A stretch of DNA of 64,000 nt from Bilabrum cf. latius (GCA_965178125.1 OZ237764.1:496001-560000); one strand, 5' to 3'; numbered from the stretch's first letter, positions 1 to 64,000 are shown. Notes: generated from the sequence alone by a model not told the origin. A program made the numbers and translations.

Positions 1-1
1 C

Positions 2-35765: not shown

Positions 35766-35910
35766 TCACAGCTCTCTGTCACTGCCTTTCCATGTGCCGG
35801 ACCGCTGCTACTTGGTCTTGGCCTCCTGCGTTCTCCTCAGCCTCTCCTCCGCACCCTCGATCGCGCCACCTAGCCGGCCGGAGTGGTAGTCACGCATGGC
35901 CTGCACGATC

Positions 35911-35942
<32 letters not shown>

Positions 35943-37099
35943 CTTCACGATGGGCTCGCCGATTGGCTCCCCTGTGACGATTAGGACGGCCAGGCCCGCC
36001 TCGTCCAGCGGAACCTCCGCGCTGCGCGGCGCCGCTGTCCCGTCCGTGCCGGCATCCTCTTTGAGCTCCCCACTGGCAGGGACAAGGAGCTGAGCGGACA
36101 CGGGTGCGCCATCGTGCGATGCACCCGGGCAGGAGACTCGCACAACGCCCCCCTCCGACCCCAGCTGTGCCATCACTCCCTCCTCCACATCAGCTGCTTT
36201 GGCACCACCGTGCGATGCACCCACCACCCCGTTGCCCCGGAAGGCGTACACGAATCCTTCCTGCCCCTTGGGTATGTCCACGTCAATGGCACTGCCCGGC
36301 CGCAGCCTCAGATCGACGTAGGTCACGGCGGTCTCGAGCTTGATGGGCCCCGTGGCGCTGAGCGTGGAGCCGAGCACCACCTTGGCACTGCCCTGCTGCC
36401 GTGGCTGTGTTGACGAGAATTTCTCGGAGGAACCGGCCGCTGCTTCTGCTGGTGGCAGTGATGGGATGGCCCCATCCTCGGGGCCCGTCTTGGCTGCCTT
36501 GGTGAGGAGTAGGGGCACGACGGGCATGGCTGCGGCTGGCACGTCCTGGTACGACGCCTCCATCATTTTCTTCTTGCTCGGCAGGTTGATCCAGAGCTGG
36601 AAGCCTTCCACCGTCCCGCCTTCTCTCATGATCGTTTCGGATGGCATTTCTGCGTGGACGACGCCTCTGCCGGCGACCATGTACTGAGCGTCGCCGGGCC
36701 CGAGCTCTCCCTTTGCTCCTGAGGAATCCCTGTGCTGGAACGAGCCATCGATCACGTACGTGAACGTGATCTACCCGCGATGCGGATGATCTGGGGCTCC
36801 AACTGCTTCGCCGGGTTTGTATGAGACTGGGCCCATGTGGTCAAGCATCAAAAATGGATCGATGGTGTCGATCTCGTGTCCGACGGGGCGCCGAACCTGC
36901 GCGGCGGGGTGATTATTGGCTGGCATGGGCACTGTTACTAAAGTACGCACGACCTGAAATGCAACTGACGAGCTACACATGCGTTCCTCACTATAAAACC
37001 GCCCCCTTCCCTACGCTTGGAAGCTCGCAATGTTCGTTCGACCGATCGATGAGCAGCTCCACTTTTATCTGTCATGATAGAACCAGCAGCAGATGCCAT
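35766..37099 (-). CDS. Pirin family bicupin
   Basis: [10 protein letters not shown] (intron 36897-36991), [56 protein letters not shown] at 36771 and 35808; ends ...GSDREL-TGA at 35766-35768. Confidence 0.92.
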
Positions 37100-38438: not shown

Positions 38439-38554
38439 CCTACAAAATAAGCTTTGCTTGAGTGTACAAATGCGCTTCCGAAGCTCCGCATGGGAGTAGC
38501 GTGCAAATTGAAGTAGTAGGTCGGATCGCGTTCTCGCACATACTTGACCGCACA

Positions 38555-40223
38555 ATGGCCGCAACAGAATCGAAAGCCGCACCGTTGTCCCTTGGTGTCG
38601 AATCATCAAAGCCCTTGGAAGATCAGTATCGTTCGATCGAGAATTTGTTGCTTCGGCCGTCGCCTTTTGGCAATGAGACTGGCACTCTCCCAAACGGAGA
38701 GTACGAGCCGGGCAAAGAGGTGAGACATTTCGACCACAAAGGTACCATTAGATACTATTCATAATTACCTTTCTAATGTTTGCCACATTGCACCGGAAAT
38801 CCCCGCAGACGAAAGACAGGCTCCATGATGCCAAGGTTTTGGTAGTTGGTGCAGGTGGCCTTGGCTCAGAAGTGAGACAACTGCAAGCCACGCCTCGGAT
38901 GTATTACATGATGCACAGCTGACTCAAATCATCGCGCTCCTTGCCCCCGATCTGCCCCTGCAGTTGCTGAAGGACCTGGCTCTCATGGGATTCCGGAACA
39001 TCCATGTGACGGACCTGGATACGATCGACCTGACAAACCTAAACAGGCAGTTCCTCTTCCGAATGGACGACATTGGAAAGGACAAGAGCGAGGTGGCCGC
39101 CCGATTCGTCATGAAGCGAGTCCCGGGATGCACTGTCACGGCCTACCGAAGCTTCGTTCAGGACTTTGACGACGATTTCTTCCGTAGCTGCGCCGTGGTC
39201 ATCGGTGGCCTTGATAACCTGAAGGCCCGCACGTGGATCAACGAGAAACTGTGCTCGCTCGCGATGCTAGACGACGAGGGCTTCCCCGATCCGGACACGG
39301 TGGTGCCATACATTGACGGAGGCACCGAGGGATTCAAGGGGCACTGCTGGCTCATACTGCCGAAATTCACGGCCTGCTTCGGGTGCCACCTAGACATGTT
39401 CCCTCCCGCGGTCATGTTTCAGGAATGCACGATCGCCTCGACCCCCAGGTAGCCCCAGCACTGCGTCGCGTGGGTCAAGGAGAAGCTCTGGCCCAAGGAG
39501 CGACCCGGAGTCAAAATCGACACGGACAACATCGAGCACATGCAGTGGATCCACGCCAGGTCCCTGGAGCGGGCCGAGGAATTCGGAATCGAAGGGGTTA
39601 CGTACCAGTTCACGATGGGCGCGGTGAAGAACATCATCCCTGCGATCGCGTCGACCAACGCACTCGTCAGCGGGATCCAGGCCCTGGAGGTATTCAAGCT
39701 CGTCACTTTCTGCTCCCAGTCGCTTAATACGTATTTGAACGTTACTGGCGAGTACGGGGCTACCATGATGACCCAGCAGCTGGAGAGACAGGGGCCGGGG
39801 GACTGCTCCGCCTGCCAAACCAAGGTGCACAAGCTGGCCGTGCACCCGGAGTCCACACTCGCAGGGGCCATCCGGCAGCTGGTGGAGGACCCGGAGCTGA
39901 ATATTTTGGCTCCGAGTCTCGCGAGGGAGGGCAAGGCGCTCTACTACAGCGCCCCTGCATTCATGGAGGCTGACACCCACGGCAACCTGTGCATGCCGAT
40001 GAAGGAGCTGGTGCAGGACGGGGAGAACACGTACATCACCGCCACTTGGGGCAAGGGCCCCGCGGGGGAACCGGAGAAGCTGGCAGACGCTGTGTCGATG
40101 GAGCTTAGGTTCTAGCTCGATCCCAGCGCGGCAAAGAAGCAGGAGAAAGACGTGGAGGCACCCCCTAGCAAATCGGGGGGCGGGGGTGCGGCAGGGGCCG
40201 CGGGCGGCGGGGCGGGCAAATGA
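38555..40223 (+). CDS. UBA3: NEDD8-activating enzyme E1 catalytic subunit
   Basis: Exons 38555-38719, 38809-38871, 38964-40223. [51 protein letters not shown], catalytic [12 protein letters not shown] (TAG 39450), [14 protein letters not shown] second TAG at 40113; TGA 40221-40223. Confidence 0.93.
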
Positions 40224-42799: not shown

Positions 42800-43720
42800 A
42801 TGAGCAATAATCTCCTGGTGGGGGAGATGGACCCTTTATGGGCCCTAGCCTTAGCACATAGTGCTTTGGCTATATTCTTCCTTCCTATGGGATGGGAGAA
42901 GCCGACGCCTGGATTGGCATTGTCGGCTGCACCGGGTTCGGTGCCTGTGCTGGTTGAGCAGCACAGCCCTGTTCAGGCGTCCTGGAGTGTCGTCTGCGCA
43001 GCGGAAGAAGAGCTAAATAGCTCTCGATTCCACTCGAGATCCCTGTGGGGGCTGCGAAGTGGTTATGGCCCGTTCGCCGATGTGCGCGGGAAGGTCTACG
43101 ACCAAACGGTCGGGAAGGTGTTTACCGCCTCCGACGCCCGTACTGTCATTTCAGCACGGGATTTCTTCCCTTGTGGAGAAAATGGGTTCTTTGAAGCCCT
43201 AGTCTTAGCATCTAATGCTTTGGCGCCGGTCTACCTGCCGGAGAGCAGGGCGATTGGTTTCTGCACCGTTGGTGCCACCTATTCCGACGCCCGTACTGTC
43301 ATTTCAGCACGGGATTTCTCCCCTTGTGGAGAAAATGGGTTCTTTGAAGCCCTAGTCTTAGCATCTAATGCTTTGGCGCCGGTCTACCTGCCGGAGAGCA
43401 GGGCGATTGGTTTCTGCACCGTTGGTGCCACCTATATCAGCCGGGCCCGGGGACACCGAGCTCGGGAAGACTCCCAGGAGGGGGAGCCTCGGAACTATTC
43501 ACATATTTACGCTGACAGTTCCAGAGACGAGCATGATTGTGTGCGTGCTCGACCCTCAGAGGGATCGCGAGTCCGGACGATCCTGGAAGTGACGTCGGAG
43601 GCTGGAGGGGCACTCCGTGGTGGGTCTGGACCGCGCATAATGCCGGGTCCACGCAGTATGCCTGTGTGTCTACGGATATCCGAAATAAAGGCTCCGGGAC
43701 TGCTGCGAAGGAGGGCTTGA
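42800..43720 (+). other. Doubtful 306-codon ORF spanning a tandem duplication; no recognisable domain
   Basis: The open frame exists, but codon usage is unlike neighbouring genes and about one sixth of its length is the extra repeat unit. Confidence 0.2.
43130..43435. repeat. 153-bp tandem duplication (43130-43282, 43283-43435)
   Basis: The two units are identical except for one substitution I could find (ttcttccc vs ttctcccc). Confidence 0.95.
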
Positions 43721-43940: not shown

Positions 43941-46544
43941 ATGAAAACTAGGCATCTAGCAGCCTGCATACCAGCGCTATTGCAAGTGTGTATGGCCTAT
44001 GAATTTAAGTGGGTCGGACTCGATGCGGGAGGCTGGGTGACAGGCATGGCAGTGCACGATGCATCAAAGACGGTGTACGCGCGCACAGATGGTGAGTAGT
44101 AGCCATGTGCTAGCTGATATCGTATGATCCGGCCCGTGTGGCATACATCATTATATTTGAATGCACTTCCTGCGTTGATTGCAGTCGGTGGGGCGTACAC
44201 GTCCAGCGACGGCGGCCGCAGCTGGGACTGGATATCCGGCAGCATGCCAGGGACGACCACCTGGAACACGCAGTGCCTGGCCCCCGATCCATCGGATCCC
44301 ACAGGCCAGACAATCATTATTGGTCATGGCAGTCCCAGCGACAACAGCACCACCCGCCCATGGGACCAGCAGGGCATCTCCCGCACCACGGACGGAGGCA
44401 AGACCTGGGAGCTGGTTCTGCCCGGAGTCATTTTCGATGGGAACGCCGACTGGAGGCAGGGAGGAGAATGCATCGCATTTGACCCTTCCAACCCCAGCAC
44501 AGTGTGGGCAGGCACGATGTTCGGCCTATGGAAGTCGGACAAGGCCGGCGCGCCGGGCAGCTGGACCTCGGTGGATTCCTTCAACAACAACCCATCAGTG
44601 TTCAACCGGACCACAGGAGGGCTGGCCGGCATCTCCTTCCGGGGTACCCTGGAGCAGCCCCACCTGGGAGCGCTCTCGTCACACGAGGCAGAGCAGAAGC
44701 TCCTGAGCCGGGGCGGTGTCCCCTTTGGATCGCCCTCACAGGAGGTTTGGGTGGTGGGGCCCGGCACGGTGGCGATCTCGCTCAACGGAGGCAGCACCTG
44801 GAAATCAGCCTCGGAATTCGGCAACGCGTCTGCGTTGAACATCGTGGGCGGGCTAAGGTCCCGGCGCTGTCTCAACGGCACCACTTTCGTCTCGGTGGAA
44901 GTATCTTCGTCCGAGTCTGTATCTGATTTAGCGGGCAGCACGGGAGGCATCAAGGGCAGGAGCCTTCCTGACGTGCTTGTGCGGGTGGATGCGACCGACT
45001 GGCAAGACCCCGGCACGTACACCTGGACGCAGATCAGCGACATACCCAACACCAAGAGGGACGGGAGCCGAGGCCTGCCCAAAGGGGCGGGCAGCGTGGA
45101 CCTAGTCGAGGTAATGTACGGGGAAAGCACGCTCGTATCTGCGTACGCCGACGGGTCGTTCGGGGTGTCGCTGGATGGCGGTCGAACGTTCGCCATGAAG
45201 AATCGAACCCAGCTGATGGGCCCGGGACAGGCGCCCCGTTGGTTCCCCACAGACCCCTCCGTCAGAGACACGATCGCCTTTGGTAACGGACGGCTGGTGA
45301 TCGATCCCACCGATTCGAGCGGGAAGCGATGGGTGATGGGGACGGGGTTCTATCCCGCAAGCACGACCGACCAGGGCGACAACTGGGTGGCCAATGTGGA
45401 GGGCTTCGGGGAAGTGGTGACCTACCGCGCCCAGCAGCACCCGTACGCCGAGGGAAGAACGTTCGTGGGTGTGATGGACCTCGCCGCATTCGTGATCGAT
45501 GGTAGGCAGGGCAAGGACGAGGTCGAGTGGGCCATGATGGCGCATGAACCCAAGGTGACGCCCTACAACCAGTCGTGGTTCGTGATCGACTACTGCCACC
45601 AGGCGGCCTTCTTCCCACCGGCCGCGCACTCGTCACACAATCTCTCCGACGCCCCATTGGGTGTGATGAAGATGGCCTGCAACAAGCAGGGCGCGGGAGA
45701 AGGCCAGTGGATGGAGTCCACGGACGGGGGCATGACTTGGACGCTGACTCTATCCGCTGACATGAGGGGCATCGGCCAGGACGTGCCTCTTGTTGACTTG
45801 CTGCAGTCCCCCGATGACCCCAACGACATCCTGCTGGCCACCGGCTGGGGCTGGTACAACAACGCCAGCAAGTCAGAGGGCATATGGCGGTCGCTGGATG
45901 GTGGCCTATCATGGATCAAGGCCAAGAAGGAGCCAAAAACCGGGTTCATCGGAAGCTTTTATAAGCCCCAAGGGCACATCAAGGCAGACACTGTCAACAA
46001 CGACACCCGCTATTGGCAGCTGGACAATGCTGGCATCTTCAAGAGTCTGGACCGTGGTGACACGTGGGACGAGTGCAAGTCCCAGCCGTTCAACGATGGT
46101 GTGCTCAACAACGGGCTCGCCGTGGTGAAAGATTCCACCGGTGGATACGGGGGCAAGCCGGGCCAGTCGGTGGTGCTGTCGGCAGGGCAATCGAGGGTGC
46201 TGGGCGAGGGCTTGCAGGTGTCATACGACGGCTGCGACACCTGGCATGCACTGCCGGGGAGCGGGAATTTCACCTGGAAGTACCCCATGGGGAGCAGCGA
46301 TGGGCCCCTGCTTGACGCGCACGAAAGCGGCGTGATCGTGACGACTATGGGGCGGGGTGCAAACTACCCTGACACATTCTCCGTGTGGGCCAGCAGCGAC
46401 TTCGGGCAGACCTGGACGGATGTGGCAGACGTAACGAAAGGACAAAGCGTGCGCGCTTCGGGCCTGTACATCGACAGGTGGGACCCGAAGCGCATCTTCA
46501 TCTCAACGGGCGGTCGGAGTCTTGCCATTGTCACGCTAGAGTGA
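43941..46544 (+). CDS. Secreted GH74 (xyloglucanase-like) double beta-propeller / BNR-repeat glycoside hydrolase
   Basis: Signal peptide, then GGWVTG...VYARTD|VGGAY (intron 44092-44184), matching the GH74 YARTDIGGAY catalytic motif. Second Asp candidate in FVGVMDLAAF. Repeated S/T-x-D-x-G-x-T/S-W Asp-boxes; TGA 46542-46544. Confidence 0.8.
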
Positions 46545-46585
46545 TTCAAAGCATGCGGAGACAACGGTGGGAGCAGTGTCCCCAT

Positions 46586-48240
46586 CAGGGCTGCGCGTTA
46601 TTAAGGGCTCCTTAATGACGTGGATTTTCACCCGCGGAGGCCTTAATAACGGAAGTCACTTTGTCGCCTCAACACCCCATAACAATGGGCAAAAATACTA
46701 AATATAGTTTAAATACTTAATATTTTATTCGTATGGGCAGATTTATTATCGATGTTGGTATTATTGAGCCAGTATGAGCGTGCTACAATTCAATCCTTCA
46801 ACGTCCAACCCACGCAGGTCGGCATTAGGCCAAGAAAAGGCAGACAACGCCGCCAAAGTCTAGCACGCATAGCATGGTCGAATAATGCCTACTCAGAATA
46901 GCCTGCTGGTATTCGTAAATTTCACCAGGCTAAGAGTGCAGCTGAGCTACTGCTGAAGCTAGGTGCAGGGCTCCTTTTGGGTGCAAGACTGTGTGGCCCG
47001 ACCGGACATTACTCTAATGTACTCCACATTGTTACTGGTATTGATACAATATCCGGTGCGAAGGAGCTTGAGGCGCGATTAATGCGTCTGCTGGTGCAGC
47101 ACGACGATCCGGGATCTGCACACCCTTGTACCTGGGCTCCCTAACACCTTCTCAGAGAGCCCGAAGCAAAGGCTATGGCGTCTTGCTGGCGGACTCAGCG
47201 TGCTAGAACTATACAGGCGTAGGAAACGAAGGGAAAGCACGCCATATCCGCGATACTGAAGATGAATTTGGATGCATTATCGTTGGCTGTTCGGGCTCCT
47301 CGGGTCTTGGGCAAGGCATGGCTCGAGAAGAACAAGTGGTGGATGCTGCCAAGCACCGCCGTTGGCTTTGCGTTCATCACTGCTGAGGATGGGCTGGTGC
47401 TGATGGATTCGTACGAAGCTTAGGCATACCACAAGCGTGAGCTTCTCCGACCGAAGCAGACGCAATAGCATCTGTTGGGTAGGCAGGCCGCAATGACGCC
47501 CTTAACAAGGATCTCGCACCAGGAATAACCATCGGACAGGCTGCAGATGACGGTAAATGTTTGTTCAACTCGCTTGTGCAGCTGCTTCCTAAGGGCCCGA
47601 CCACCTCATAGCCTTGTAGGTTGCGCAAGGCCATCGTTGACGAGGTCGAAAAGGGCATGGGCGACTTCGTCAGGGGAGGCTCGACAGTTCTTGAGAAGAT
47701 GATGCAGACACCTGACGGCACGGAAAAGATGCTGATCTTGTAGTAGTACGTGAACATGCGCAAGGACGGTGTGAGGGGTGGTCAAATCGAAGAAATGGCT
47801 GCAGCGAGGGCGCTATCGTGGTCTGTACCCTTGGGCCTGATGCGTACTTCTACTCGGTGCATGTCCCCTCCTCATCCCGTCAAGTGGTCGCCATACACTT
47901 GATGGGCTCCCACTACAGCCCGTGCCATGCAAGCCATGTGGTTCTGCGAGCCTTGGTCGTCGAGCACGAGTGAAGGGTGTCATGGCTTCTTGTGGCTATC
48001 CGGCAAGCGTCACAGCCTGGATAACTACCAGAATGTATTGCTTTGTAGTATACTAAGATGTTGTTTATAGTATGTGGCATATATATCATGCATAACTCCC
48101 AATGTAAGGACTAAATGAAGAAGATCCAATGACCCGATCTTAATAACGTGGATTATTTTGAAAATCCTGTTAATCACCGGCTTAATCACGGATCTTGGGT
48201 CCCGGTATTAAGGTTTTGGCCTTAATAACGCACAGCCCTG
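46586..48240. mobile_element. Non-autonomous hAT-like DNA transposon (1,655 bp) with decayed OTU-like coding remnant
   Basis: 21-bp TIRs CAGGGCTG(C/T)GCGTTATTAAGG (46586-46606, 48220-48240). Perfect 8-bp TSD GTCCCCAT (46578-46585, 48241-48248). Subterminal CTTAAT(A/G/C)ACG repeats. A single GTCCCCAT marks the empty paralogous site at 53280-53287. Confidence 0.92.
47500..47925 (+). pseudogene. Degenerate OTU-like cysteine protease domain inside the transposon
   Basis: ADDGKCLFNSL (Cys codon 47558), **YVNMRKDGVRGGQIEEMAAA, then after a frameshift near 47812 IVVC...IHLMGSHYSP (His codon 47911). These match the OTU DGNCLF / WGG-E / HY motifs. Confidence 0.65.
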
Positions 48241-48315
48241 GTCCCCATCCGTGGATCTTGGATGCTTGCAGGGATGTGACGTGAATCCATGACTTATTGT
48301 GCCATCCAAAATCTT

Positions 48316-49409
48316 CAGACCTGTCGAAAGTTGCGGCTCAAAAAGGTAAGTAAGGCCCAAATAAGTACCTCTGCCAAAAATAAGTACCCCCACCAAGAAA
48401 AAGCCGATTGGATTATATGCTGTAAAAATGGTAAAATAGCCTCTAGAAGCGTGCGGGATGCCGCAGCACCGCAGTCCGGTCACCTGAGCACCACAGCACG
48501 GCCTACAGCGTACCAGGGCTGACCCACACAGGCAACCCCTTTCGCGCTGGCCTTCGCTAAGACATGCGCCCAACTTGAACTACGACGCTTGCTAGCATTC
48601 TACCGTTGGGACGAAGGCGCCTGCAAGCACGAGATCACCGCAAAGCGACCTCATTTGACTCGCTGGAAATCAGAGACAGGGTCACTCCTCGCCCCCACCT
48701 CCCCCACTAGGCGCCTCCGTACCATCTACTGCAGCCCCAGCAGCTTGCTGACCATCGACTCCGCCTCCAGCATGGGCAGCATCCAACAGGTCGTTATCGC
48801 CCTCCTCCTCGTACTCGATGTCCTTGAGTCCGAGATGGGTGCAGTTCTCGGTGGTGTCGTCCAAGACCGCTCTGACCGAAGCTTGCACCTCCTTCACCCT
48901 CTCATCAGGGAAAAGGCCACCGCACCGGCCCAGCCACGCAGGAAGCCACTGGTCGAGGTACGTCTGATGGTTGTCTCGGATCAGAAGGACCAACTGCACG
49001 GTGTCGATCGTCCTGCTGCTCTGCCGACGGTCGCTACAGGCGGCAGCGGTTGCGGAGGACCTCGGCCATGTCCAGGAGGAGGCACTATTCGGCGGTCACC
49101 TTGAGTTTTTTACTCGACTTGTTTGCCTTCAAATAGCGGGTGATCTTCTTTTTCCCGTCGCGCTAGGCCGCGGGAGGGCGCCTCTCTCGGTTGATCGCCT
49201 CTGCGCCGGAAAATGAAAGCGCGGTCGTCCTCTCATGAATCTATAAAATAAAGAGGAAACACCACCAATCGACTAAGTTACTTATTTTCTATCTTACTGC
49301 GGCTTTTGGTACTCCCCGGCATGCGTTTTATGCAAGATATGTGGCTTGCCTGGACTTACTTTCGCCCCGAAAAAGCAAGTCATGAAGATAAGTACCTTCG
49401 ACAGGTCTG
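48316..49409. mobile_element. Second TIR element (~1.1 kb), probably an older hAT derivative
   Basis: Inverted ends CAGACCTGTCGAA (48316-48328) and TTCGACAGGTCTG (49397-49409); subterminal TAAGTACC-like repeats. Absent from the paralogous site ~53317-53332 (tgtgcca|cttgactgga). No clean TSD. Minus-strand remnants VLRNRCRL / TIDTVQLVLLIRDN resemble a hAT dimerisation-domain end. Confidence 0.7.
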
Positions 49410-50229
49410 ATCCAGATTGACTGGATTGTAGGATTATATCTGGATCTCTACATTGAAACCTGTATCCCTTACACAAACATCAAGTATCCCCGGATTAAGT
49501 CGGCTAGTTTTGGACGGCAGCTGCAGCGATCCGTGTCCGCTGGTCGCGGGCTGGCGCCAGATCCCGCACATCTTCACGCGCTTCAAGGGTCAGGTTCGGG
49601 GCTGCAACCGTCGGTAGCGGTTACTTAATTGAATCGCCGGTGGCCCCGGGGTTAGGTGCTTCTGGCTCGCATCCGGATCAGATCTCAGCCCCGCTATGGT
49701 AATAAAAAATTGATGGTAATAAATAATTTATTTATTCCAATGCGGGGGGGAGATCCGGAAGGAAGCAGCCACGGTGTGTCACTGGCATGCTGCCTCAGGC
49801 TCGGGCCTGCATCAAGCTCCGGTGGCCATCCTGCTGCTTTTACTCCTAGCAAAGCCTTACACATGTCTCACGGACTGGCATCAAGCTACGTGGTACCTTG
49901 CAGCCCATGGCATGAGTGGCTGGCACTCGAGAGTCGAGACTCTCAGCCTGCTAGGCTAATGCTCGATGAGGCCCCGAGGGGATAAGTCTCCCCTTCCAAA
50001 AACAGTCGGAATGTCTCAGCAGGTTGTTTGATGTGACACCTAGCGCGTGCGCTTCAGATTATAACTTATATTCGGTGACTTTTGCAGTCGATTCAACTCG
50101 CGCCCTTGTTCGGTGTGAAAGCATTTCGCATACATGCGCCAACAAGGCGAAAGCAGGTCCCGTCATGCATCGTAGGGATCGCACGCACGCCACTCGTACA
50201 TCTGCGCGACCGCCGTACAAAGACCCTCC

Positions 50230-51873
50230 TCACATAGTCTGGTACCCGTCCCAGTAAGCAAAAGCGTTCTCGAAACTGTGTCCCGGCTCTCCCTCAGGCC
50301 AGCCGTGACACGACCGCCAGGCTATTGAGAGCGTAGCCTGCTGGCGCAGGTAAACGATGTTTTTATCAATCTTCAGCGCCATTACCGTGGGCCGCATGTA
50401 GGACGTGTCGACGCTCCACAGGTACGCCCCGCTGTCCATGTCCACCAGAGCGAGATCTCCCGTGCGGTCGCACTCCTCCCCCGTGATGACGAGTGCGCAC
50501 TCCTGGGCCTTGCCCTGGGTTTCTGTCGCCCAGTTCTTGTCTCCGACATCAAATGTCCCCACCAGGTTGCAGTCGTCCTTTACTGTCAGAGAGGCTTTGC
50601 TGTTGCCCCCCTTCCGGAGCGACTGCCCCATGGCCAGCACCTGAGTGTCCCACAGAGTATGCCCCTGGGCGGCAGGTCGCTTAGCAAGCGCCTGGGGGTC
50701 GCAGCGAGGTACTATCCCGATGATGGCCTTCTACAGCGCCTTCGACTTGCGACCGTTGCCGTAGGTGTCGTCTTGGTCAGGACTTTCCAGATCCTTCGAC
50801 CCCGATGACCACACGATAGCACCTCCCTGCTAGTGCAGGACTGCATTCCCAGCCCCCTGCATACGAAGGGTGTCTGCACCCGGGTCCATCAGCGAGGCAG
50901 GCACCCGCCAGACGTACTGCCCGGAGGCGCTGTCCACGATGGCCAGGTCGCCCTTGGTGTCGCACCCGTCCCCTGTGATGACGAGTGCGCACTTTCCCTC
51001 AGTACCCTTGCCCCTCGTGTTAGTCGCAAATCGCGCTTCGTCCTCTCGGTACACCACCAGGTTGCAGTCTCCCTGCATGCGTAGCTCGAACCCCTCCCCC
51101 GCCCTCAAGGAGGCCCCGGGTCGCAGCGCCTGCCCCGGAGACAGCAAGTTGCCGCCGGTCACTTGTTGGTATGACGATTCCAGGACGCCTGCATCGCACT
51201 GCAGATTGTGCACGTCCTCCCGCACCTCCAGATCGAAGTGGAGGTACCCCGTACCGCTCACCACGTTATAATCATCTTTGGTGCTCCACAGCAGCTGCGC
51301 GCCTTCCTGAAGGAGGACGACATTGCCGTCCCCCTAGACCAGAAGCGTATCCACCTCTGGTGTGAAGATAGAAGATTGCACTCGCCAGAGGTACTTGCCC
51401 GTAACCGTGTCGATGATGGCCAGGTCTCCCTGCGTGCTGCACGATGCATCCGTCATGAGCAGCGCGCAGTGGTTGGCCTGTTCTGGTCGGTGCACGGCTA
51501 TCATTTCCTTGTCCGAGTCGCCAGTTATCTACAGGTAGCAGTCATACCGGAGCCACATTCTCGTCGAATCCTTGGTCAATGCATCATCGTATGAGTACTC
51601 GGCAGAATGCAGAATCTCGCCTCTCCGGAGCCTGTCGCCCTTTGCCGGCTTCCTCGCGGCCAAGGCGCTCACATCACAGGAGTACATGTCAATGTTGTCC
51701 TCGTTCAGGCGTGTAGTCCATACTTGGCCAAGATTGTTGCTGCTGCTGGTGTGGACCGAGACCGACGAAGAAGAGCCAGCACGAAGGTGCTGCTGGCCTG
51801 CTGCTCGACGCCCATGCACGCAGAGCGCCGAACAGGCGGCGAGAGCTACCAACACAGAAACGATTGATCGCAT
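50230..51873 (-). CDS. Secreted protein with three bulb-type (B/GNA) lectin-like domains, copy A (547 aa)
   Basis: Signal peptide MRSIVSVLVALAACSALCVHG; three repeats of L-x-x-G-x-x-L ... DC(N/Y)L ... C-A-L ... GDLA ... YxW; MQGDCNLVVY matches the QxDxNxVxY mannose-site consensus. TAG at 51529, 51334, 50830, 50731; TGA 50230-50232. Confidence 0.82.
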
Positions 51874-52024
51874 TATTGCAGATCTGAGGTTGACACGACC
51901 GTTGTATCGCTTAACGATGACGCAGTCGGCGGCCATGAGGTGTGCGACGAGTCGCGCGCACGAGCAAATATGCTTCGTCACCCGCCGGCGCCGCAGCGGA
52001 ACTTTGGGCTGTGGCGGAGGGCGG

Positions 52025-52241
52025 CCATGCCCGAGCCAAACTTTCGGCTCGGGCAAAAGGCAACTTTGCCCGAGGCTTATTATTTTATATTTAAACTGGG
52101 TTTGCCGCGATTTCAGCGATCGCGCCCGAGCGGAAAGTTAGGCTCGGGCGCCGAGCACCTGCGCCCGAGCCTAGCATTGGGCTCGGGCAGGGGCGCCCTC
52201 CGCCCGAGCCTAGGGTTTTCTTTTTTTCGGCTCGGGCACGG
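52025..52241. mobile_element. MITE-like / foldback element rich in GCCCGAG(CC) inverted repeats
   Basis: Ends CCATGCCCGAGCCAAA and TTCGGCTCGGGCACGG (14/16 inverted match); about 9 GCCCGAG/CTCGGGC copies in mostly alternating orientation. No TSD found. Confidence 0.55.
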
Positions 52242-52604
52242 GTATTTTGCTGATAAATCGGTCAGTAACTGCGAAATATGAAGAGTCTCAGCACCTACAT
52301 CGCGCAAACGTGCAAATGCATTGGCAGCACTCGTCGCGAACGTCGGGGACTCTGCCGAACGATAACCACTATCAACCTAGCCAACTAGCAATACCAATCA
52401 TGCTCCAATCAAGCGCTTGCCAGGGCATTTATTTTTGGGAACGGGTGGGACAGTAACTGAATTTACTTATTTTGTGTAATGGTTGTTGTTGGATACCATT
52501 AGATGGTACCATAGGATGTTAAAAACCGCAGGTTTTAACATCCCAAGTTGGGGGAGACTGGAAGAGAAATTTATTTCTCGCACCGGTCTACCCGTCGGGG
52601 GGGT

Positions 52605-53246
52605 TCGCTGGATGGTGGACTATCCTGGACCAAGGCCAAGAAGGAGCCAAAGACCGGGTTCATCGGAAGCCCAAGGGCATATCAAGGCAGACACCGTCAA
52701 CAACGACACCCGCTATGGCAGCTGGACAATTCTGGCATCTTCAATAGCCTGGACCGCGGTGACACGTGGGACGAGTGCAAGTTACAGCCTTTCAACAATG
52801 GTGTGCTCAACAACGGGCTCGCCGTGGTGAAAGACTCCACCGGTGGATACGGGGGCAAGCCGGGCCAGTCGGTGGTGCTGTCGGCAGGGCAATCGAGGGT
52901 GCTGGGCGAGGGCTTGCAGGTGTCATACGACGGCTGCAACACATGGCATGCACTGCCGGGGAGCGGGAATTTCACCTGGAAGTACCCCATGGGGAGCAGC
53001 GATGGGCCCATGCTTGACGCGCACGAAAGCGGCGGGATCGTGACGACAATGGGGCGGGGTGCAAACTACCCTGACACATTCTCCGTGTGGGCCAGCAGCG
53101 ACTTCGGGCAGACCTGGACGGACGTGGCAGACGTAACGAAAGGACAAAGCGTGCGCGCTTCGGGCCTGTACATTGACAAGTGGGACCCGAAGCGCATCTT
53201 CATCTCAACAGGCGGTCGGAGTCTTGCCATTGTCACGCTGGAGTGA
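52605..53246 (+). pseudogene. 5'-truncated duplicate of the GH74-like gene 3' end
   Basis: Highly similar to 45890-46544. An 11-bp deletion at ~52670 (between AAGC microhomologies) and a 1-bp deletion at ~52716 give a compensated frameshift. No upstream domains or signal peptide. Confidence 0.88.
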
Positions 53247-53687
53247 TTCAAAGCATGTGAAGGCAACGGTTGGAGCAGTGTCCCCATCTTGGATGCTTCC
53301 AGTGATGTGACATGACTGTGCCACTTGACTGGACTACAGGATCACATGTGGTTCTCTAAATTGAAACCTACACCCGTGCATTTGCGTGAACATTATGCAT
53401 TCCCGGATTAAGCCGTCACCTGTTCAGCCACGCCCATCACCATCCGGTTTACTTGCTCCTGGCTCGCAAGCGGAATCTGGAATCCGGATCGGATCCAGAG
53501 GGAAGCAGCCGCGGCATGCCAGGGGCCTGCGTCAGGCTCTGGTGGCCATCTTGCTGCTCTTGCTCCAAGCACAGCCTTGCATAAGTTTCGCAGACTGGCA
53601 TCAAGCTATGCAGTACACTGCAGCCTTCTACACGAGTGGCTGGTAGACCCGCACCCATATCTGCAAGACCGCCGCACAAAGATCCCC

Positions 53688-55358
53688 TCACTTATCTTGG
53701 AACTTGCCCCAGTAAGCAAACGCCTCCGTGAAACTGGATTCGGGCTTTCCCTCAGGGCTGTGGGATCCCTTGCCGGCATCCGACCGCCAGATTCGTGAGA
53801 GTGTAGCCTGCTGGCGCAGGGACAGTGTGTTGTCATATAGCTTCATCATCCTGGCCGTGGGCCGCATGTAGGACGTGTCGACGCTCCACAGGTACGCCCC
53901 GCTGTCCATGTCCACGAGAGCGAGATCTCCCACGCGGTCGCACTCCTCCCCTGTGATGACGAGTGCGCACTTCTGGGCCTTGCCCTGGGTATCCGACTTC
54001 CAGTTGATGTATCCGTCCCCGGCAGTCTCTACTAGGTTGCAGTCGTCCTTTACTGTCAGAGAGGCCTTGCTGTTGCCCCCCTTCCAGAGCGACTGCCCCA
54101 TGACCAGCACCCCGGAGTCCCACAGAGCTTGGCCCCGGGCGGCAGGTCGCTTGGCAAGCGCCTGGGGGTCGCAGCGAGGAGCCGTCCCTTCGATGGCTGC
54201 CTACAACGCCGCTGTCTTACGACCATTACCGAAGGTGTAGTCGAAGTCAGGACTAACCAGGTCCGCCGACCCAGATGACCACGCGATAGCACCTCCCTGC
54301 TGGAACAGGACTGCATTCCCCGCCCCCTACAGACGAAGGGTGTCTGCGCCCGGGTCCATCAGCGAGGTAGGAACCCGCCAGATGTACTGCCCGGAGGCGC
54401 TGTCCACGATGGCCAGGTCGCCCTTGGTATCGCACCCGTCCCCCGTGATGACGAGAGCGCACTTCCCCTCGGTACCCTTGCCCCTCGTGTAAGTCGAAAA
54501 TCGCGCTTTGCGCCCTAGGTGCACCACCAGGTTGCAGTCTCCCTACATGCGCAGCTCGACGCCATTCGCCCCCCCCACCCTCAAGGCGGCCCCGGCTCGC
54601 AGTACCTGCCCCGGAGACAGTACGTCACCGCCGGTCACTTGTTGGTACGACGATTGCAGGACCCTTGCATCGCATTGCAGACTGTGTATGTCCTCCCGCA
54701 CCTCCAGATTGAAGTGGAAGTACCCCTAACTGCTCGGCAAGTCCTTTTTTTGTTTGGTGCTCCACAGCAGCTGCGCGCCTTCCTGGAGGAGAACGGCATT
54801 ACCGTCCCCCTGGGCCAGAAATGTGTCCACCTCGGGTGTAAAGGCAGAGGATTGCACCCGCCAGAGGTACTTGCCCGTATCCGTGTCGATGATGGCCAGG
54901 TCTCCCTGCGTGCTGCACGACGCATCCGTCAAGAGCAGCGCGCAGTTGTGAGCATGCTCCTCACGGTTGCCCGAGGCGAACAATTCCGTCTGGCCCTTCC
55001 TATCGACGACCAAATTGCAGTCAGCCCGGAGCCACACCATCGTCGAATCTTTCGACAACGCATTACCGAGTGCGCCCACGGCGGAATGCAGAATCTCGCC
55101 TCTGCGGAGCCTGTCGCCCACTGCCGGCTTCTTTCTCGCGGCCAAGGCGCTGACGTCGCAGGAATATGTGTCAAGTTTGTCAAGGTCGAGGTGTGCCGAC
55201 TGGATACCGCGGCTCTGATGCCTGCTGCTGGCGTGGACCGAGGCCGACGACGTAGAGCCAGCGCTGCGAAGGTGCTGCTACCCTCTTCTTCGTCGCCCGT
55301 GCACACTGACCGCCGAAAAGGTGGCAAGAACCACTAAAATAGTAACGATAGATCGCAT
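53688..55358 (-). CDS. Secreted protein with three bulb-type lectin-like domains, copy B (556 aa)
   Basis: Signal peptide MRSIVTILVVLATFSAVSVHG; colinear with copy A. TAG at 55278, 54726, 54543, 54327, 54201; TGA 53688-53690. Confidence 0.82.
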
Positions 55359-56340: not shown

Positions 56341-58985
56341 TTACTTGCCCAGCTTCGGAGCTGGCTTCTCCCATTGGCTCTTGCCGGTTTCCGTGTTGTA
56401 GTAGTACGCATAGCCCTCAGGTGTGTGAGCCGTCACCCATTGCTCGTCAAAGCCACCCTGCTACTCCTCCGAGGCATGCTTCTTCGTTGCCTAATGGCTC
56501 CGAGTTGAGACCCATCCTCTCTGCTCCACTTCCAGCACCTCGTGGCACAACAAGCGCAGTCGCGTATCGAGCTCCCCTGTTCTCTGAAGCTACTCCATAA
56601 CCTCGAGTACCCTAGGCATGAACGGCTTGTACTTGTAGTTCTTCTCCACTGCTATACTTTCGAATCTCGAGAAAGCTCCACCCACCCGGAGCGCCAGCGT
56701 GCATAGGCACTCGACGCTCAGCGTATTTGGAGACTCATCTGCCTGCTTGGCAGCATCAAGCGAGGCATTCGACAGTGGACCCAGCAAGAGGTGCTTGAGG
56801 CATACCATGATGATGGTTGGCGGCAGCACTCTCTGCAGGAAGATGTGTCCGATAAACGATGTACTGCTCAGCACACTCTTCTTGATCTCAGCTAGCTCAG
56901 CTGCCCGCTCTGTCCTCCTCTGCTCGAGCCGGTCTCTCAGCTGCCTGGTCAGCGTGCCATCCCTTAGGGCGTCATGCAGCTCTGTATCGTCCTCGCGCCG
57001 AGCCTTCAAAAGTGCAGCAATCGAATCCTGTCGCTTGAACCCCTTCATCGTGCGGGCGCCAAGCACGTTTTGCAGTTGGCTCCGACGGATGCCCTCTGCC
57101 AGTGCGGATGCCTCGTCTGTGGCCCTGCTGCATTTGACTGGTGGTGGAGTCAGCTTATCTCCAGACTGGTCAAAGTACCACCCTGGCTCCACTGGCATGC
57201 CCTTGAGCTGCTCCAGCTCCTCCTGTAGCAGCTCGATGGTACCTTCGTACGTGGTCTTGCCGTTGACGAGGTCAGCCACCTGCTTGTATGGGGACATGCC
57301 CTTCACAGTCGTTTCAATTGCGCCGCTGCTTGTGCTCGCACCAGCGCCAGTACCTGCACCTGGCCCTGCACCTGCTCCCAAGGCCGCTCCAGTGTCAGTA
57401 CCTACACCTGGCCCTGCAACTGCTCCCAAGGCCGCTCCAGTGTCAGTACCTCCCATATGAGTCGTGGCTAGGGCACCAGTCTGCTCCTAGATGGCGGCCT
57501 GGATTTTGCTGGCATGTCTTGCAGCCATCACAGCGAGCTCCATCTTGTCCTTCCTCGCCTCTAGGGCCTCCATCAGGGTCTAGACGGCCGACATTCGGGT
57601 CTGCTACAAGGCTTTACTAATCTTTGCCTCCTCTTCAGATACAAAAAGGGGCTTGACAAACCCCTTGGCCCAATTCATGGCCATAGGTTTGATGTTACGG
57701 AGAAGAACAGCGATGGCTTCCTGACGGTGCTCATCCAATAGGGCCTTCTTGATGATGAGGTCCACGATCGTCAACAACACACTGTAGGACTTGACCTCAA
57801 GTCCCTTCATCTCCTTCACCATTTCGTGCCGGTTGCTGGCAGTAAGCCGATCGAGTAGGCTGGTGACTGTCGTGGCCGCCCGCTCGTGCTCATCCCCAGC
57901 ATGCTCGTCCTCACCCGGCACTTGGTCTACGCCGGCGTCTTGCCTGTTCTGCACGCGCTTGAGGCGGGCCACCAGCTGCACGCGATCTGCCTCCGAGAAT
58001 CGGTCGCGGTCATGCCGCCTGCCCTTGCCTCCCTTTCGTCCCTTCTTGTTCTCCTTGACCTGCTCGCGAGGAGCCAGTGAGTAGCCCAGAACGCCCGCGA
58101 CCAGCATGCCATCTGGCCCAAAGGAGGACCTGCTTGGAATACTAGTCATGGCCTTCCTAATTCCGAGCATCTGGGCAACTGTGAACTTGCCTGGCACGGA
58201 TGTCTCTTCCAGCAGCGGGTCAAAGCCGTCGAGGGCTGCCTCGCCCGTAGCTGTGCCTGGGTGCGCTCGGTGGATCGGACGAGGGGGGGAGGCGAAGTCG
58301 GTGCAACTTGAATAGCCTGCAGTGTAGCCTGGTGCGAAATGCTCCCGTGCCTCAGCCCCGGGCTGGGCGGAGGGAAAGAGAGCAGGTGCTGCCGGGGCAT
58401 CCGGATGTATTTGCTCCTTCTGCTGCGCGAAGCTTGGCGGGGCTGACGCTTGTGAATCAGTTGCATCTAGCAAACCATCCCTTTCTTGCTGCTTCTTTAT
58501 GGCCTCTGCAGCCCACTCCACCTCCTATCCGCTGCTGTACTGGATCTTGAAAACGCGACGTGGGCGCTGTGTTCTCGGAACGGGTCCCGCCCCTGCTTGC
58601 GACGTGGTCGATGCTACAGACAGCTATGGTCCGGGTACTATGCCTTGCGCCTACCACTACTAGTACGCGGGAGGCGCCTGGTGCCTGAACATGTAGTGGT
58701 GCTGTGGCACGGCACTGGCTGCGGTGATAAGCGACTAACGAAAGTGGTTAGATCCAATCCGGATATACCGCAGGTGTACGAATATCTCAGTAAACAAACA
58801 AATTCGGTCTTGCCTTGAGACAAGGGTCCCGCGAATCCTCCTAGACCAGGACTGCGAAAAGGAAGAGACAGGCAGCAATCTGAGCCAAATCTAGGTATCG
58901 TGGGAGAGTTAGGTAATTCAATCATCCATCCACATGGAAACACTAACAATTGTTGTTGAGAATGTTGGCGATTCGGGTTCATGTT
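56341..58985 (-). CDS. eIF4G-like MIF4G-domain protein with C-terminal WW domain (5' exons uncertain)
   Basis: VTSLLDRLT...IVDLIIKKALLD; FIGHIFLQRVLPPTIIMVCLKHLL; VECLCTL; LDTRLRLLCHEVLEVEQRGW; then QWVTAHTPEGYAYYYNTETGKSQWEKP. One frame runs from at least 58740 to TAA 56341-56343 with 10 or more TAGs. Confidence 0.75.
57355..57450 (-). repeat. 48-bp coding tandem repeat (GTDTGAALGAxAGPG x2)
   Basis: cacctggccctgca(c/a)ctgctcccaaggccgctccagtgtcagtacct repeated twice. Confidence 0.85.
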
Positions 58986-59542: not shown

Positions 59543-61550
59543 TCACGCCATCTCGCCCTCGACCTCCGCCGCGAAGAGCCTCCACTCCTCCTCCCGGGCC
59601 CTCTCCACTACTTCCGGTTTGAGCACCCCCAGCCAGCCCAGCATCCTCACGGCCCGCGACTGCAGGAATTCCACGTAATCTTCGTCCATGAAAAAGCTCT
59701 AGAAGTCGTGCCCGGGATCGACCCTGGGCCACCGGGGCAGGCCGGGGGTAAGCAGCCCCTTGCCTGCCGGTGCCGCACCCCCCTGCAATGCACCTCCAAC
59801 GGCAGCCGTGGCCCCCTTCGGTGCGCCCGCTGCAGAGCCCCCCTTCGGTGCACCCGCTGCAGAGCCCCGCAAGCTGCCCGTTGCAGGAGATGGCGGCTTT
59901 TCCTCGCCTGCGCCACTCGTCACACCAGCCTCCTCGAACAGCTCCAGCACCACGTTGCGCCAGGCCGGCGAATCCTCATCACCACCTTCCTTGTCGCCAT
60001 CACTCGTCACACCACTACCCTCCTGCAGCCCTCTAGCCCACGCCTCAAACGCCTCTTCGTCCTCCTTCCTCATCGCCTCAAAGCACACCTACAGTGCGCT
60101 CTGCCGCCCCTCTGAGCTCATCAGCATCAGCACCAGCTTCTCGGGCAGCCACTCCTCGGAGAAGTACGAGGCGAAATGGTGCAAGTAAACAGCCACCTGG
60201 GCCTGCTACTTGGTCTTAGAGGGGTGCATCAGCCGCTCCACGATGGACTGTGGGCTCGGGCCTGCGACAACGAACGAGTGCCGGTGACGCAGGTCGCGAA
60301 CGTACCTTTGCGAACTTTCACGAACCTTCCTGATCCCCGACCACGGTTTGCCGAAATTGCCCTTGGCCTCCACCGCGTCAGTGACCTCCTTGGTCGCAAA
60401 CCCGCTGCTCCTCCAGGGAACACAGCCCTTGGCTTCATCTCCCAGGAACGGCTGCCTGGCGCACCGCACTCCCATGCACCCAGCGAGCAGACTGAGGCTG
60501 ACGTTGGCACCATGCACGTCCGCATCTCCCGCAAGTTCGTGATCCCTTGCCCCCGTGTAGTACGCCTTGCTGGGCTCGGTAAAGGAGGATGCGAGGGCTT
60601 TTTCCTTCCACTCGTCCATCTTGCCGAGCAGGAAGTCCAGGACGGTCGCGCGGGCCCTCGTGACGGGGTCCTCGGCGCTATCGTGCGATGCACCCGCCCC
60701 GCTGCTGGCTGCAGAGGCGGCAGTACCTGCCGCACCCTTCGATGCCGATGCACTGCCGCTGCCGCTGCCGCCGCTGCTCGGCTTGGCTGCCGGGGGGTGG
60801 GTGTGGTGGGCTCCCTGGAGATTGGAGGCGCATTCGAGCACCGTCATGAATACCGCCACTTTGCGCGCGTGGCACTATTGCGCGCCCCTGCACATGAGGG
60901 CAAGCATGGACTCGGCCGTGATCGGATCGCCGGTTCTGCTCGCTCCATCGCCCTCGGTGCTCTCCGCAATGGCGAGCAGAGCAGCGTGGAGAATCGGCCG
61001 CTGCCACGCGCGCAGCTGCCTCTGCAGCTAGGGAACTTCTCTCTCTGGATAACCGCTTGCTATGCCAGGTACGCTCACCCTGTAGCGGATAGCAGGGGTT
61101 TCTGTTCCTGTGGCCTGAATCAGACGATTAACGGTTGTCGAGAACGGCTCCGATATTGGGTCCTCTGCAACCATGCGCTCGTACCGGGTAACGAGAGCCT
61201 GCACGCGGGAACTGCCTAATATTGCTTCGGAAATCTGCGACAAATTTTACGCGACAAGACTTGGAGATTGTGGTTTCATCTATCCAATTTCATTCTTCGC
61301 GATCTGGGCACCTCGAGACAGGCGACCACTCTGAAGCTGCCGATACCATAGACATTGCCAGTAGATACAATTGATCTTACGCAAATTTTATCCATTGCAG
61401 ATTTGAATGCCGGGATAGCCGCGCCTGGGGGCGCATCGATCCAAGACTCGAACAAATCGACGGATGCAGATCGAGCCAGCTTGGGTGGAGCAAGAGCGCT
61501 ACTAGCAGGTTTCTCAACTGATGCACACATACCCATAAACAGTACCACTG
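59543..61550 (-). CDS. Hypothetical protein (5' end uncertain)
   Basis: ORFs 61028..61243, 60206..60859 and 59699..60088 share a frame linked by TAG only and end ...EVEGEMA-TGA at 59543-59545. A probable intron ~61235-61380 joins the 61276..61548 frame. Confidence 0.6.
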
Positions 61551-61717: not shown

Positions 61718-64000
61718 TTAGTGCGATCCGCCCATGCCGCCTAGCGAGTCGAGAATCTCGCCCAGGCCATCCCAGCCTCGCTTGGCTTCCTTCCTGCCAG
61801 CCGCACTGGCAAGCCCGCCATCGTCATGACGGCCACCACCAACCCCGCTCTCCCTGCATGCATAGCTACCCATCAACACGTCAGATGCATCGGATGCAAC
61901 ATGTCCTCTGTAGGGACTGGCCGCCTCGCCCTCGCCAGCCGCTGCTCGTTGATACTGCCCAGCGGCTGCATCGCTCCCAGTCCTCCTCCGCTTCTTCCAG
62001 CGAGAGGATCCGTCCGAGTGGCGAGCGGCAGCCGTTCCAAGCTAGGCGAGCTCTAGGGGCAGGCTCCCCCCTAGAGCCCGGCCCCGAAATCCCCGGGCAA
62101 AACCAGAAGACAAGGAAGAGGCGGCGGATTCGTTCGAAGTAGACCGGTCCGGCGCGATGGATCCAGAGGCGGTGGCGGAGACGTCTGGTCTGGACCGCTT
62201 CTGGCCCAGCCCATTGGCACCCTTGGCTGCATTCACTTCCTTCTGGATGTAGTCGATCGACAGGAAGGTGCTTTCCAGTGACCTGGACACACTTGGTGTC
62301 GGCTTGGAGCTTGCGCCTGCTCTAGATCTAGATCCAGAGGTAGGCTTTGCATCTTTGCGGCTGGTCTTGGAAGACCGAGCCTTGACAGGCTCTCTCGTGG
62401 ACTTGACACTCGGGCCGACCTCTGCTTTGCTGCTAGCGAAACCGGCAGACTTGAGGCTGTCATCGGTAGACGACACATGAACACCGCCTGCTGCTGTCCC
62501 GTGACCGGCGACAGCCAGGCTGGCAGTTGCTGAGGAGGCGGCCGCTAGCTCGTCGTCAGCGCCGCGCCTGCTTCCCGACGTGCTACCACTATCCGATGTG
62601 ACGCACGTGTTTGCGCCATCGCCGAGACGGGCAATGCCTGTCGCTGCCGACAAGGCCGGTACCACTGCAGTCTAGGTTGCTGGAGCGCTCTTCTTTCGGT
62701 CGGAAGGTGCGCGCGAAACAGAGTGGCCTGCTTGTGTATCGTTCCTCCCCGTCTTTTTTTGCTTCCCACTCGTTTTCTGCCCTCCAATCAGCGGTGCAAA
62801 TGGAATCTCCGCCGCCTGGCGGTCTGGCTGCAACGGCTGGAACTCGGGGGTGGTGGCGGCGATGGCCGCAGCTGCCACCGCGACGGCTTCATTGGCCTTC
62901 TTGGCCGAATCGCTCGCGCTAGAACCGCTGGCAGAGGAACCATCGCTTCGTTCGCGCATGGCCCTCTGCAGGATCAAAGAGGCAGACAGCGGACCGCTGG
63001 CATTCGAGCTCGAGGCGGATGCACGAGCCGACCCCCCGCTGTCCCGCTTTCGACTGCTTGCAGCCATTCCACTAGACCTAGCACCCGCACCTACTCTGCT
63101 TCGTGTTGGACTGCCTCTGAGCTCAGAGTGCTTCGAAGGTCTGGCTCTAGGAGTGGCGGAGGCTGGCGTAGCGCGGGCTGTTCCCGGGGAGGACGGTGGC
63201 ACCGGTCGTGACGCAGCCGAGGCGGGGGTACGAGGCCCAGCGACGACCGGCACCGCCCTTGCTCTGGTCATGAGTCCTAGCTACAACTGAGCCTCAAGCC
63301 GTGTCAGCTTGCACTGCCTTGCAGCGTTCAGTGCCATCTGGGAGTGGAGCCCGATCTCGAGTGCGCTTGGCCTGTGCCCGGCTGTGAGGACGATCAGCTC
63401 CTTGAAGTGGAAGATGTAGCTCGATTCGAAGCTGACCGAGTCATTCACGGGACAAGGCTATACGGACTCAGTAGCGGTGGGCAAATCTGCCGAACTTGGC
63501 CGTTCGGCTGCGCTGGAACTCGCCATCGAACCAGCACAAGACGCTCGTCGGTCCCCTTTCCGAGTCCCATTTCTGGCCTTCTGTCTGACCGGACTGCCAG
63601 GAGAACTAGTGTCATCCTCCATGGGCGCCTATCCAGTGCTTTTCCCCAACGTCACTTGACCCTGATTGGTCCGAGTGTACGGGCGGGAAGGGCTTGCTTG
63701 ACTATTTGCGGACTGATCAGATGAGCCTGACTCGTTGGCATGAGCCTGCATCCGCCAGTGCCGGTGCCTAAACAGACCCAAAATCCACCTAATTCCCACC
63801 TCTGACACACCCTACTACCGCAGCCCTCGGGGCTCAAGGAACACGCGACACGGTGCCTCTGGGAGAGACGCTTCAATCCACAGCGCGGTGCCAAACCGAC
63901 CCTTGCTGCCCTCCAGCAGGAACTCGCGCAAGCGATCCCGGGCGGTAGCTGATACCCCAGGCAACGGCTGGATCGCATCGGCTTGACCTGCAGCACGAGA
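61718..64000 (-). CDS. Ser/Ala/Arg-rich hypothetical protein, 5'-partial
   Basis: A single frame is open from the window edge through 62672..63271 and 62042..62665 with only TAG interruptions; it ends ...GMGGSH-TAA at 61718-61720. Confidence 0.65.

Follow-up and report, generated by a model that had tools for sequence, protein, structure and literature searches.

In-frame TAG codons in a pair of lectin genes and their neighbours are consistent with decoding of UAG as glutamine in a GC-rich, intron-poor protist

We analysed a stretch of 64,000 nucleotides (nt) from Bilabrum cf. latius (GCA_965178125.1 OZ237764.1:496001-560000), hereafter the window, with positions counted from its first letter, and focused on two tandem, paralogous lectin genes that contain in-frame TAG codons. 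The gene lecA (50230..51873, minus strand) encodes 547 amino acids (aa) with a hydrophobic N-terminal leader and three B-lectin-like domains, contains four in-frame TAGs and ends in TGA. Its paralog lecB (53688..55358, minus strand) encodes 556 aa, contains five in-frame TAGs and likewise ends in TGA. The two share 73% aa identity and 80% nucleotide identity over about 1.8 kb. Both start with MRSIV followed by the hydrophobic leader, which is probably a signal peptide, and both proteins would then be secreted.

Between the two genes lies a copy of the 3′ end of a BNR-repeat gene (52548..53246, plus strand; source gene at 44124-46544). The segment 52605-53296 is 93.75% identical to 45891-46594 at the 3′ end of the BNR gene, which is far closer than the 80% found for the lectins, and the presence of this copy between them indicates that the lectins are part of a segmental duplication made up of BNR 3′ end, spacer and lectin. 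The depth at the BNR fragment is ~0.9 in X6, an RNA-like run described below, and therefore the fragment is probably unexpressed. Upstream of lecA, at 52020-52240, there are short palindromic repeats (GCCCGAGCC / GGCTCGGGC, 4 to 5 copies per arm), and one contig skips 52010-52091 in three runs.

The Pfam family B_lectin (PF01453, beta-prism II) matched lecB with 38.0 bits and lecA with 32.8 bits, a narrow margin over the gathering score of 32.4. The segment MQGDCNLVVY in lecA is a full match to QxDxNxVxY, which we take to be the carbohydrate-binding motif of B_lectin, and several other sub-sites are degenerate. The lectin motifs align to QxDxNxVxY in the solved monocot lectins 1xd6 and 3a0c, and weak PDB sequence matches were obtained with neoculin, gastrodianin and a Polygonatum lectin (E = 6e-4 to 6e-3). 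Thus, QxDxNxVxY-type motifs and the B_lectin match are common to the present pair and the bulb-type (GNA-like) mannose-binding lectins, but the present pair differs from them by its three tandem domains, extra Cys-rich inserts (CALVITGDGCD) and degenerate sub-sites. No lectin relative outside this lineage was detected at E <= 1e-3 when a large protein set was searched at near lengths, and of the 84 patterns that the lectin alignment matched in metagenomes, none encoded a relative. An AlphaFold2 model of lecB, built from an alignment of four sequences only, was unusable, with a mean predicted local distance difference test (pLDDT) score of 33.5.

The rates of synonymous (dS) and nonsynonymous (dN) substitution between lecA and lecB were 0.30 and 0.19, respectively, and the ratio of 0.63 was below 1 (Fisher p = 5e-4), which indicates that constraint on the lectins is weak, though significant. 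The “synonymous-like rate” of exchange envisaged in the initial annotation is in this respect only roughly right. In addition, exact X6 contigs cover the 3′ ends of both genes (50053-50414 and 53330-53879). The lectins are therefore live genes, rather than the untranscribed and neutrally evolving copies that the same annotation had named as the unfavourable case.

The codon alignment of the two coding sequences comprised 547 aligned codons, 397 of which encode an identical amino acid, and neither sequence contained an in-frame TAA, an in-frame TGA or a frameshift, in keeping with the initial description of otherwise full reading frames. One TAG is shared (lecA codon 381, 50731..50733; lecB codon 386, 54201..54203), leaving seven that are unshared; all are on the minus strand. 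Two unshared TAGs of lecA are opposite CAG in lecB, namely codon 180 within VQGDGNVV (51334..51336; CAG at 54810) and codon 348 (50830..50832; CAG at 54300). Conversely, three unshared TAGs of lecB are opposite CAG in lecA: codon 27 (55278..55280; CAG at 51793), codon 272 (54543..54545; CAG at 51073), which is the Q of MQGDCNLVVH in the QxDxNxVxY motif, and codon 344 (54327..54329; CAG at 50857) at the Q position of LQGAGNAVLF. These five pairs and the shared TAG were all found where the initial annotation had placed them, including the location of 51334 in QGDGN and of 54543 at the Q of the lectin consensus, which aligns with Q in 1xd6 and 3a0c. Its list was incomplete, since lecA codon 115 (51529..51531), opposite GTC (Val) at lecB 55008, and lecB codon 211 (54726..54728), in a variable stretch and opposite ACG (Thr) at lecA 51250, were missing. 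Accordingly, five of the seven unshared TAGs, and not five of five, are opposite CAG.

Four further lectin copies, represented by fragments P0274 to P0278 on two contigs, carry Q at 10 of the 12 residues that fall in the eight TAG columns. Q is present in P0274 at lecA codon 180, in P0274 and P0275 at lecA codon 348, in P0276 at lecB codon 27, in P0274 and P0278 at lecB codon 272, and in P0274 and P0275 at lecB codon 344; in the column of the shared TAG, both residues (P0274, P0275) are Q. The PDB lectins have Q at both motif TAGs of lecB (54543 and 54327). As a control, we determined how often canonical Gln codons are retained between lecA and lecB. Among the 34 pairs with Gln on at least one side, 23 (68%) were Gln-class on both sides, and among the pairs with TAG the corresponding number was six of eight (75%). 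The lectin TAG sites thus behave like Gln sites.

We compared these results with the open reading frames (ORFs) of the whole window. When TAG was read as sense, the longest ORFs, 1217, 972 and 808 aa, became 4190, 3482 and 1472 aa, while freeing TAA or TGA gave no comparable lengthening and TAA added almost nothing. In 15 ORFs (15,615 codons), there were 482 CAG, 111 CAA and 89 in-frame TAG codons, and no in-frame TAA or TGA, so that TAG would make up ~13% of the Gln codons. TAG was present in 14 of 17 ORFs, including those of the conserved genes RIO2, pirin and UBA3 and of a thioredoxin-domain protein. The ORFs end in TGA in 14 of 17 cases and in TAA in the other three, one of which has TAA again at codons +1 and +3. 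In the related sequence L001, introduced below, all seven compared ORFs end in TGA, and no in-frame TGA was found either in these or in the window ORFs. The 89 in-frame TAGs, together with the occurrence of TAA and TGA only as stops, indicate that TAG alone is reassigned. A perfect hexanucleotide microsatellite, (TAGGTC)10, is located at 26116-26175 inside a minus-strand ORF of 1396 aa (24411-28601), where it would encode (Thr-Gln)n as (ACC TAG)n and places about nine in-frame TAGs in series.

The identity of the amino acid was addressed, independently of the lectins, with conserved genes. The main exon of UBA3, the catalytic subunit of the NEDD8 E1 enzyme (38985..40223, plus strand), contains TAGs at 39450-39452 and 40113-40115, and an apparent upstream exon at ~38462-38761 is conserved in L001. 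The pirin gene (35766..36980, minus strand) contains TAGs at 36771-36773 and 35808-35810. The TAG at UBA3 residue 156 (TAG156) corresponds to Q in relatives of 98% and 57% identity, TAG70 of pirin to Q in a relative of 72% identity, and TAG391 of pirin to Q in one of 87% identity. Each of the three UBA3 and pirin TAGs covered by near relatives therefore corresponds to Q in them.

Searching metagenomes with UBA3 yielded two further sequences, L001 (a contig of 10.2 kb; 1-10223) and L002. L001 is syntenic with 34.0-41.2 kb of the window, with 66 to 80% DNA identity in BLAST pieces and the same gene order (J-domain/thioredoxin protein, pirin, ankyrin, UBA3 and the next gene). It also carries in-frame TAGs, and the code is therefore common to a related organism. 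The orthologous alignment comprised 1695 codons, with 65% of the residues identical, and TAG stood on one of the two sides in 25 pairs. Its partner was CAG in nine, CAA in two, GAA in two and AAG in two, and AAT, AAC, ATT, ATC, AGC, AGT, GCC, TGC, GTC and GTA occurred once each; Gln was thus the partner in 11 pairs, no other residue in more than two, and Leu in none. TTG, TGG, GAG or TAC, which the initial annotation regarded as the partners that would speak against Gln, did not dominate. The proportion of Gln rose to 11 of 16 where at least six of ten neighbouring residues were identical and was six of eight where at least eight of ten were identical. The converse comparison gave a similar picture: UBA3 residue 22, within NLNRQFLFR, is TAG in both L001 and L002 and Q in 118 of 118 distant homologs, and residue 245, also TAG in both, is Q in 100 of 118.

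Gln is encoded by both the window and L001 at 39 sites, of which 11 are Q/TAG pairs and none is a TAG/TAG pair, and at a TAG usage of 13% about 9 and 0.7, respectively, would be expected. This result fits free synonymous exchange. Since no TAG position is shared between the two sequences, against 25 unshared ones, TAG/CAG turnover appears to be saturated at this distance.

These results show that the window, L001 and L002, which represent a clade of three or more related genomes, decode UAG as sense in agreement with Gln. We favour the reading that UAG is an ordinary Gln sense codon and that UGA, as the main stop, and UAA terminate translation, in the nuclear DNA of a GC-rich, intron-poor eukaryote, and give it a probability of roughly 0.93. 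The assignment to Gln, already proposed in the initial annotation, is borne out by the further lectin copies, the L001 orthologs, the near relatives of UBA3 and pirin and the position that is Q in 118 of 118 homologs. It rests more on this evidence than on the five lectin pairs, because CAG is one transition from TAG. If TAG interchanges freely with CAG through a single C/T transition, the reciprocal lectin pairs, several of them at the Gln of QxDxNxVxY, would follow. UAG might be decoded by a dedicated tRNA-Gln with anticodon CUA, with an eRF1 that would no longer recognise UAG; passages of PMC11687900 propose this combination of tRNA-Gln(CUA) and UAG-blind eRF1 for other UAG-only codes.

Several observations weigh against this reading. 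Firstly, the two unshared lectin TAGs that are opposite Val and Thr are not matched by Q in the extra copies either, which have V (P0276) and I (P0274) in these columns. The probability of finding CAG opposite at least five of the seven unshared TAGs, calculated by taking as partners the single-step neighbour codons of TAG weighted by their frequency in both genes, ranged from 0.004 to 0.097 as the transition/transversion weight was varied from 1 to 4. Because CAG is the transition neighbour of TAG, the lectin pairs alone are suggestive and not decisive. Secondly, in 120 distant homologs of UBA3, the residue at TAG156 is L in 36, R in 33, K in 24, I in 12, M in six and Q in only five, and in solved pirins the residue at TAG70 is F or I. 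Thirdly, the partner of TAG was not Gln in 14 of the 25 window/L001 pairs, and Gln-class partners made up 44% at TAG sites compared with 62% at canonical Gln sites, which indicates lower conservation of the former. Finally, a tRNA scan of the window, L001 and L002 gave no tRNA gene, no eRF1 gene is present in the 64 kb of the window, and among the exact X6 and X7 pieces listed none extends over a lectin TAG.

Four other explanations were weighed against these data. UAG may be ambiguous, being read as Gln within genes and as a terminator in some contexts. The ORFs were delimited by TAA and TGA, so that a terminal TAG would go unseen, and context-dependent codes exist in some ciliates according to passages of PMC11687900. 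Nevertheless, translation clearly continues beyond TAG where the C-terminus allows a check: TAG391 of pirin precedes 13 residues that the 87% relative has conserved, after which the two genes end at the same position with TGA. In addition, TAG lies inside 14 of the 17 ORFs; we give this explanation only a small chance.

Still less probable is that TAG encodes another amino acid, chiefly Leu, or else Glu, Lys, Tyr, Ser or Trp. The reading of TAG as Leu was considered because L occurs at TAG156 in human UBA3 and F or I at TAG70 in the solved pirins, and it was dropped on the evidence from near relatives and L001. The prevalence of L, R and K at TAG156 in distant homologs and the Val position of a degenerate motif occupied by the lecA TAG at 51529 agree with an amino acid other than Gln. 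Against this stand the absence of Leu among the 25 ortholog partners, in which no non-Gln residue exceeds two compared with 11 Gln, the Q of the nearest relatives at UBA3 TAG156 and the pirin sites, the TAG of the relative at a position that is Q in 118 of 118 homologs, and the Q at 10 of 12 residues in the lectin copies.

Another possibility is that the code is standard and TAG is converted to CAG in mRNA by U-to-C editing. This was examined with contigs of public sequencing runs. The stretch is present in four runs from four studies, none of which is recorded as RNA. However, X6 and X7 each have a contig that skips 61235-61380, whose ends read CT..AC on the plus strand and thus GT..AG on the minus strand, whereas the DNA-like run X1 is continuous there. 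In addition, the cover of X6 is gene-shaped, with a depth of <2 in intergenic bins. From the spliced contigs and the gene-shaped cover, we tentatively infer that X6 and X7 are RNA-derived. The skipped segment is a 146-nt spliceosomal intron upstream of the ATG of the ORF 59543-61174.

In this ORF, all five TAGs are retained in exact pieces, both in the spliced contig of X6 and in X7 (5/5 each). In the gene at 56341-58692, exact pieces keep TAG at 11 of 11 sites in X6 and at 7 of 11 in X7, and in the gene at 61718-63751 at 5 of 5 in X6 and 1 of 5 in X7. The retention of TAG in RNA-like contigs of three neighbouring genes argues against U-to-C editing. At the lectins, one paralogous contig of X6 has CAG at the lecA TAG 51334-51336, as editing would predict. 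The same CAG variant is present in X1, on a contig with further clustered differences, and it is therefore attributable to a paralog and not to an edit. The lecB TAG at 55278 lies in exact contigs of X1 and X5. The depth at the lectin loci is 5 to 8 times that of the neighbours in X1 and far more in X6, and many of the lectin-locus contigs listed share 90 to 99% of their sequence, suggesting a family of multiple copies. Taken together, we consider editing very improbable; only the explanation that follows is less probable.

That the lectins are decaying pseudogenes whose TAGs arose from CAG by the common C-to-T nonsense path, as might be suspected from the weak constraint (dN/dS 0.63) and the pseudogene-like BNR fragment between the two copies, is scarcely credible, since each of the nine internal stops is TAG, with TGA and TAA absent (probability ~6e-3 under a neutral, single-step model of nonsense mutation, for the lectins alone), there are no frameshifts, dN is below dS (p = 5e-4), exact RNA-like contigs cover both 3′ ends, and the excess of TAG (89 against no TAA or TGA in 15 ORFs) extends to RIO2, pirin and UBA3.

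The window as a whole, with a GC content of 53 to 72%, is nuclear DNA of a GC-rich, intron-poor eukaryote. Its genes encode RIO2, pirin, an ankyrin protein, UBA3, G-alpha, a thioredoxin-domain protein and a MIF4G+WW protein. Two giant intron-less ORFs occupy its first part: one at 2-12574, with an open 5′ end, encodes 4190 aa that are Ala/Gly-rich and gave no Pfam match, and contains 17 TAGs; the other at 13772-24169 encodes 3465 aa with IPT/TIG domains and C-terminal transmembrane-like segments, and contains 10 TAGs. An Rfam scan of the window at gathering thresholds gave no match. As to the origin of the DNA, the named best matches of UBA3 are ochrophyte stramenopiles only, with 44 to 51% identity. 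Judged by these matches, the organism would be neither a ciliate nor a fornicate and is possibly a stramenopile, although such a placement is weak.

Other features of the window were observed as follows. A 12-mer, GTGTGACGAGTG, occurs in 42 copies (<=1 mismatch) on both strands throughout the window, compared with 0.34 expected from shuffles. The copies (for example 321-332, 1668-1679, 15012-15023 and 59914-59925) are dense in 1-20 kb, have flanks without shared similarity and lie mostly within ORFs, where they are often read as the peptide GVTS. The region 46669-48669 has ~5x the depth of its neighbours in X1 and is therefore probably a repeated element; within it, an ORF at 47441-47902 (plus strand) contains the stretch DDGKCLFNSL, which presumably resembles the motif of OTU-type cysteine peptidases. 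A 153-bp tandem duplication, 99.3% identical, is present at 43130-43435 inside the ORF 42800-43720.

The code change matters for the annotation of this lineage. Gene callers using the standard code shatter these genes, and in public protein sets the proteins of the organism are present as fragments bounded at TAG positions (P0003, P0124 and P0274 to P0278). Since calling with the standard code breaks the genes at TAG, mis-annotation or pseudogene calls will result unless NCBI table 15, which we take to be the code with UAG alone assigned to Gln, is used.

Nuclear code changes are rare, and those separating UAG from UAA are rarer still; passages of PMC11687900 list one fornicate, a few ciliates, one rhizarian and one green alga with such splitting codes. 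In a literature search of incomplete coverage, no variant nuclear code came to light in stramenopiles or in a GC-rich protist comparable to this one. The change of UAG alone to Gln is itself already known, and this lineage is a further case. We propose tentatively, at a little under even odds, that an undescribed clade of GC-rich, intron-poor protists, possibly stramenopiles and represented by at least three genomes (the window, L001 and L002), reassigned UAG alone to Gln independently of ciliates and fornicates, with UGA as the dominant terminator. If this is true, UAG was captured in a high-GC genome, where “codon capture” by AT pressure cannot be the driver. A further lineage at 53 to 72% GC with UGA as main stop would speak independently against codon capture driven by AT pressure alone, and would show again that the translation apparatus can distinguish UAG from UAA.

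The closest known codes are those in which UAG is Gln and UAA is kept as a stop. Passages of PMC5304391 describe this for the fornicate Iotanema spirale, where UAA is the primary stop, and passages of PMC11687900 for the ciliates Hartmannula sinica, Trochilia petrani and Protocruzia tuzeti, the UAG-only Gln ciliates preferring UAA as stop and having a GC content of 27 to 54%. The present code agrees with them in that UAG alone is reassigned, to Gln, UAA and UGA terminate, and UAG occurs in most genes. In contrast to their preference for UAA, TGA ends 14 of the 17 ORFs here, and the GC content of 53 to 72% differs from that of the ciliates. The codes in which both UAA and UAG (UAR) are Gln, found according to passages of PMC11687900 in many ciliates, hexamitid diplomonads, Streblomastix, ulvophycean algae and Amoeboaphelidium, likewise capture a stop for Gln at one transition from CAG/CAA, but here TAA is kept as a stop, being absent in frame from 15,615 codons and ending three ORFs. 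UAG as Leu is described in passages of PMC5304391 for the rhizarian exLh and in passages of PMC11687900 for TARA phyllopharyngean ciliates; a change of UAG only is common to these codes and the present one, whereas no Leu codon was found here among the 25 partners. Finally, “code 15” phages such as crAss-like phages read TAG as Gln (passages of PMC9523058). Both codon and amino acid coincide with those found here, but the phages recode against their host, whereas the present code is that of a cellular nuclear genome, which contains a spliceosomal intron and the eukaryotic genes RIO2, G-alpha and UBA3.

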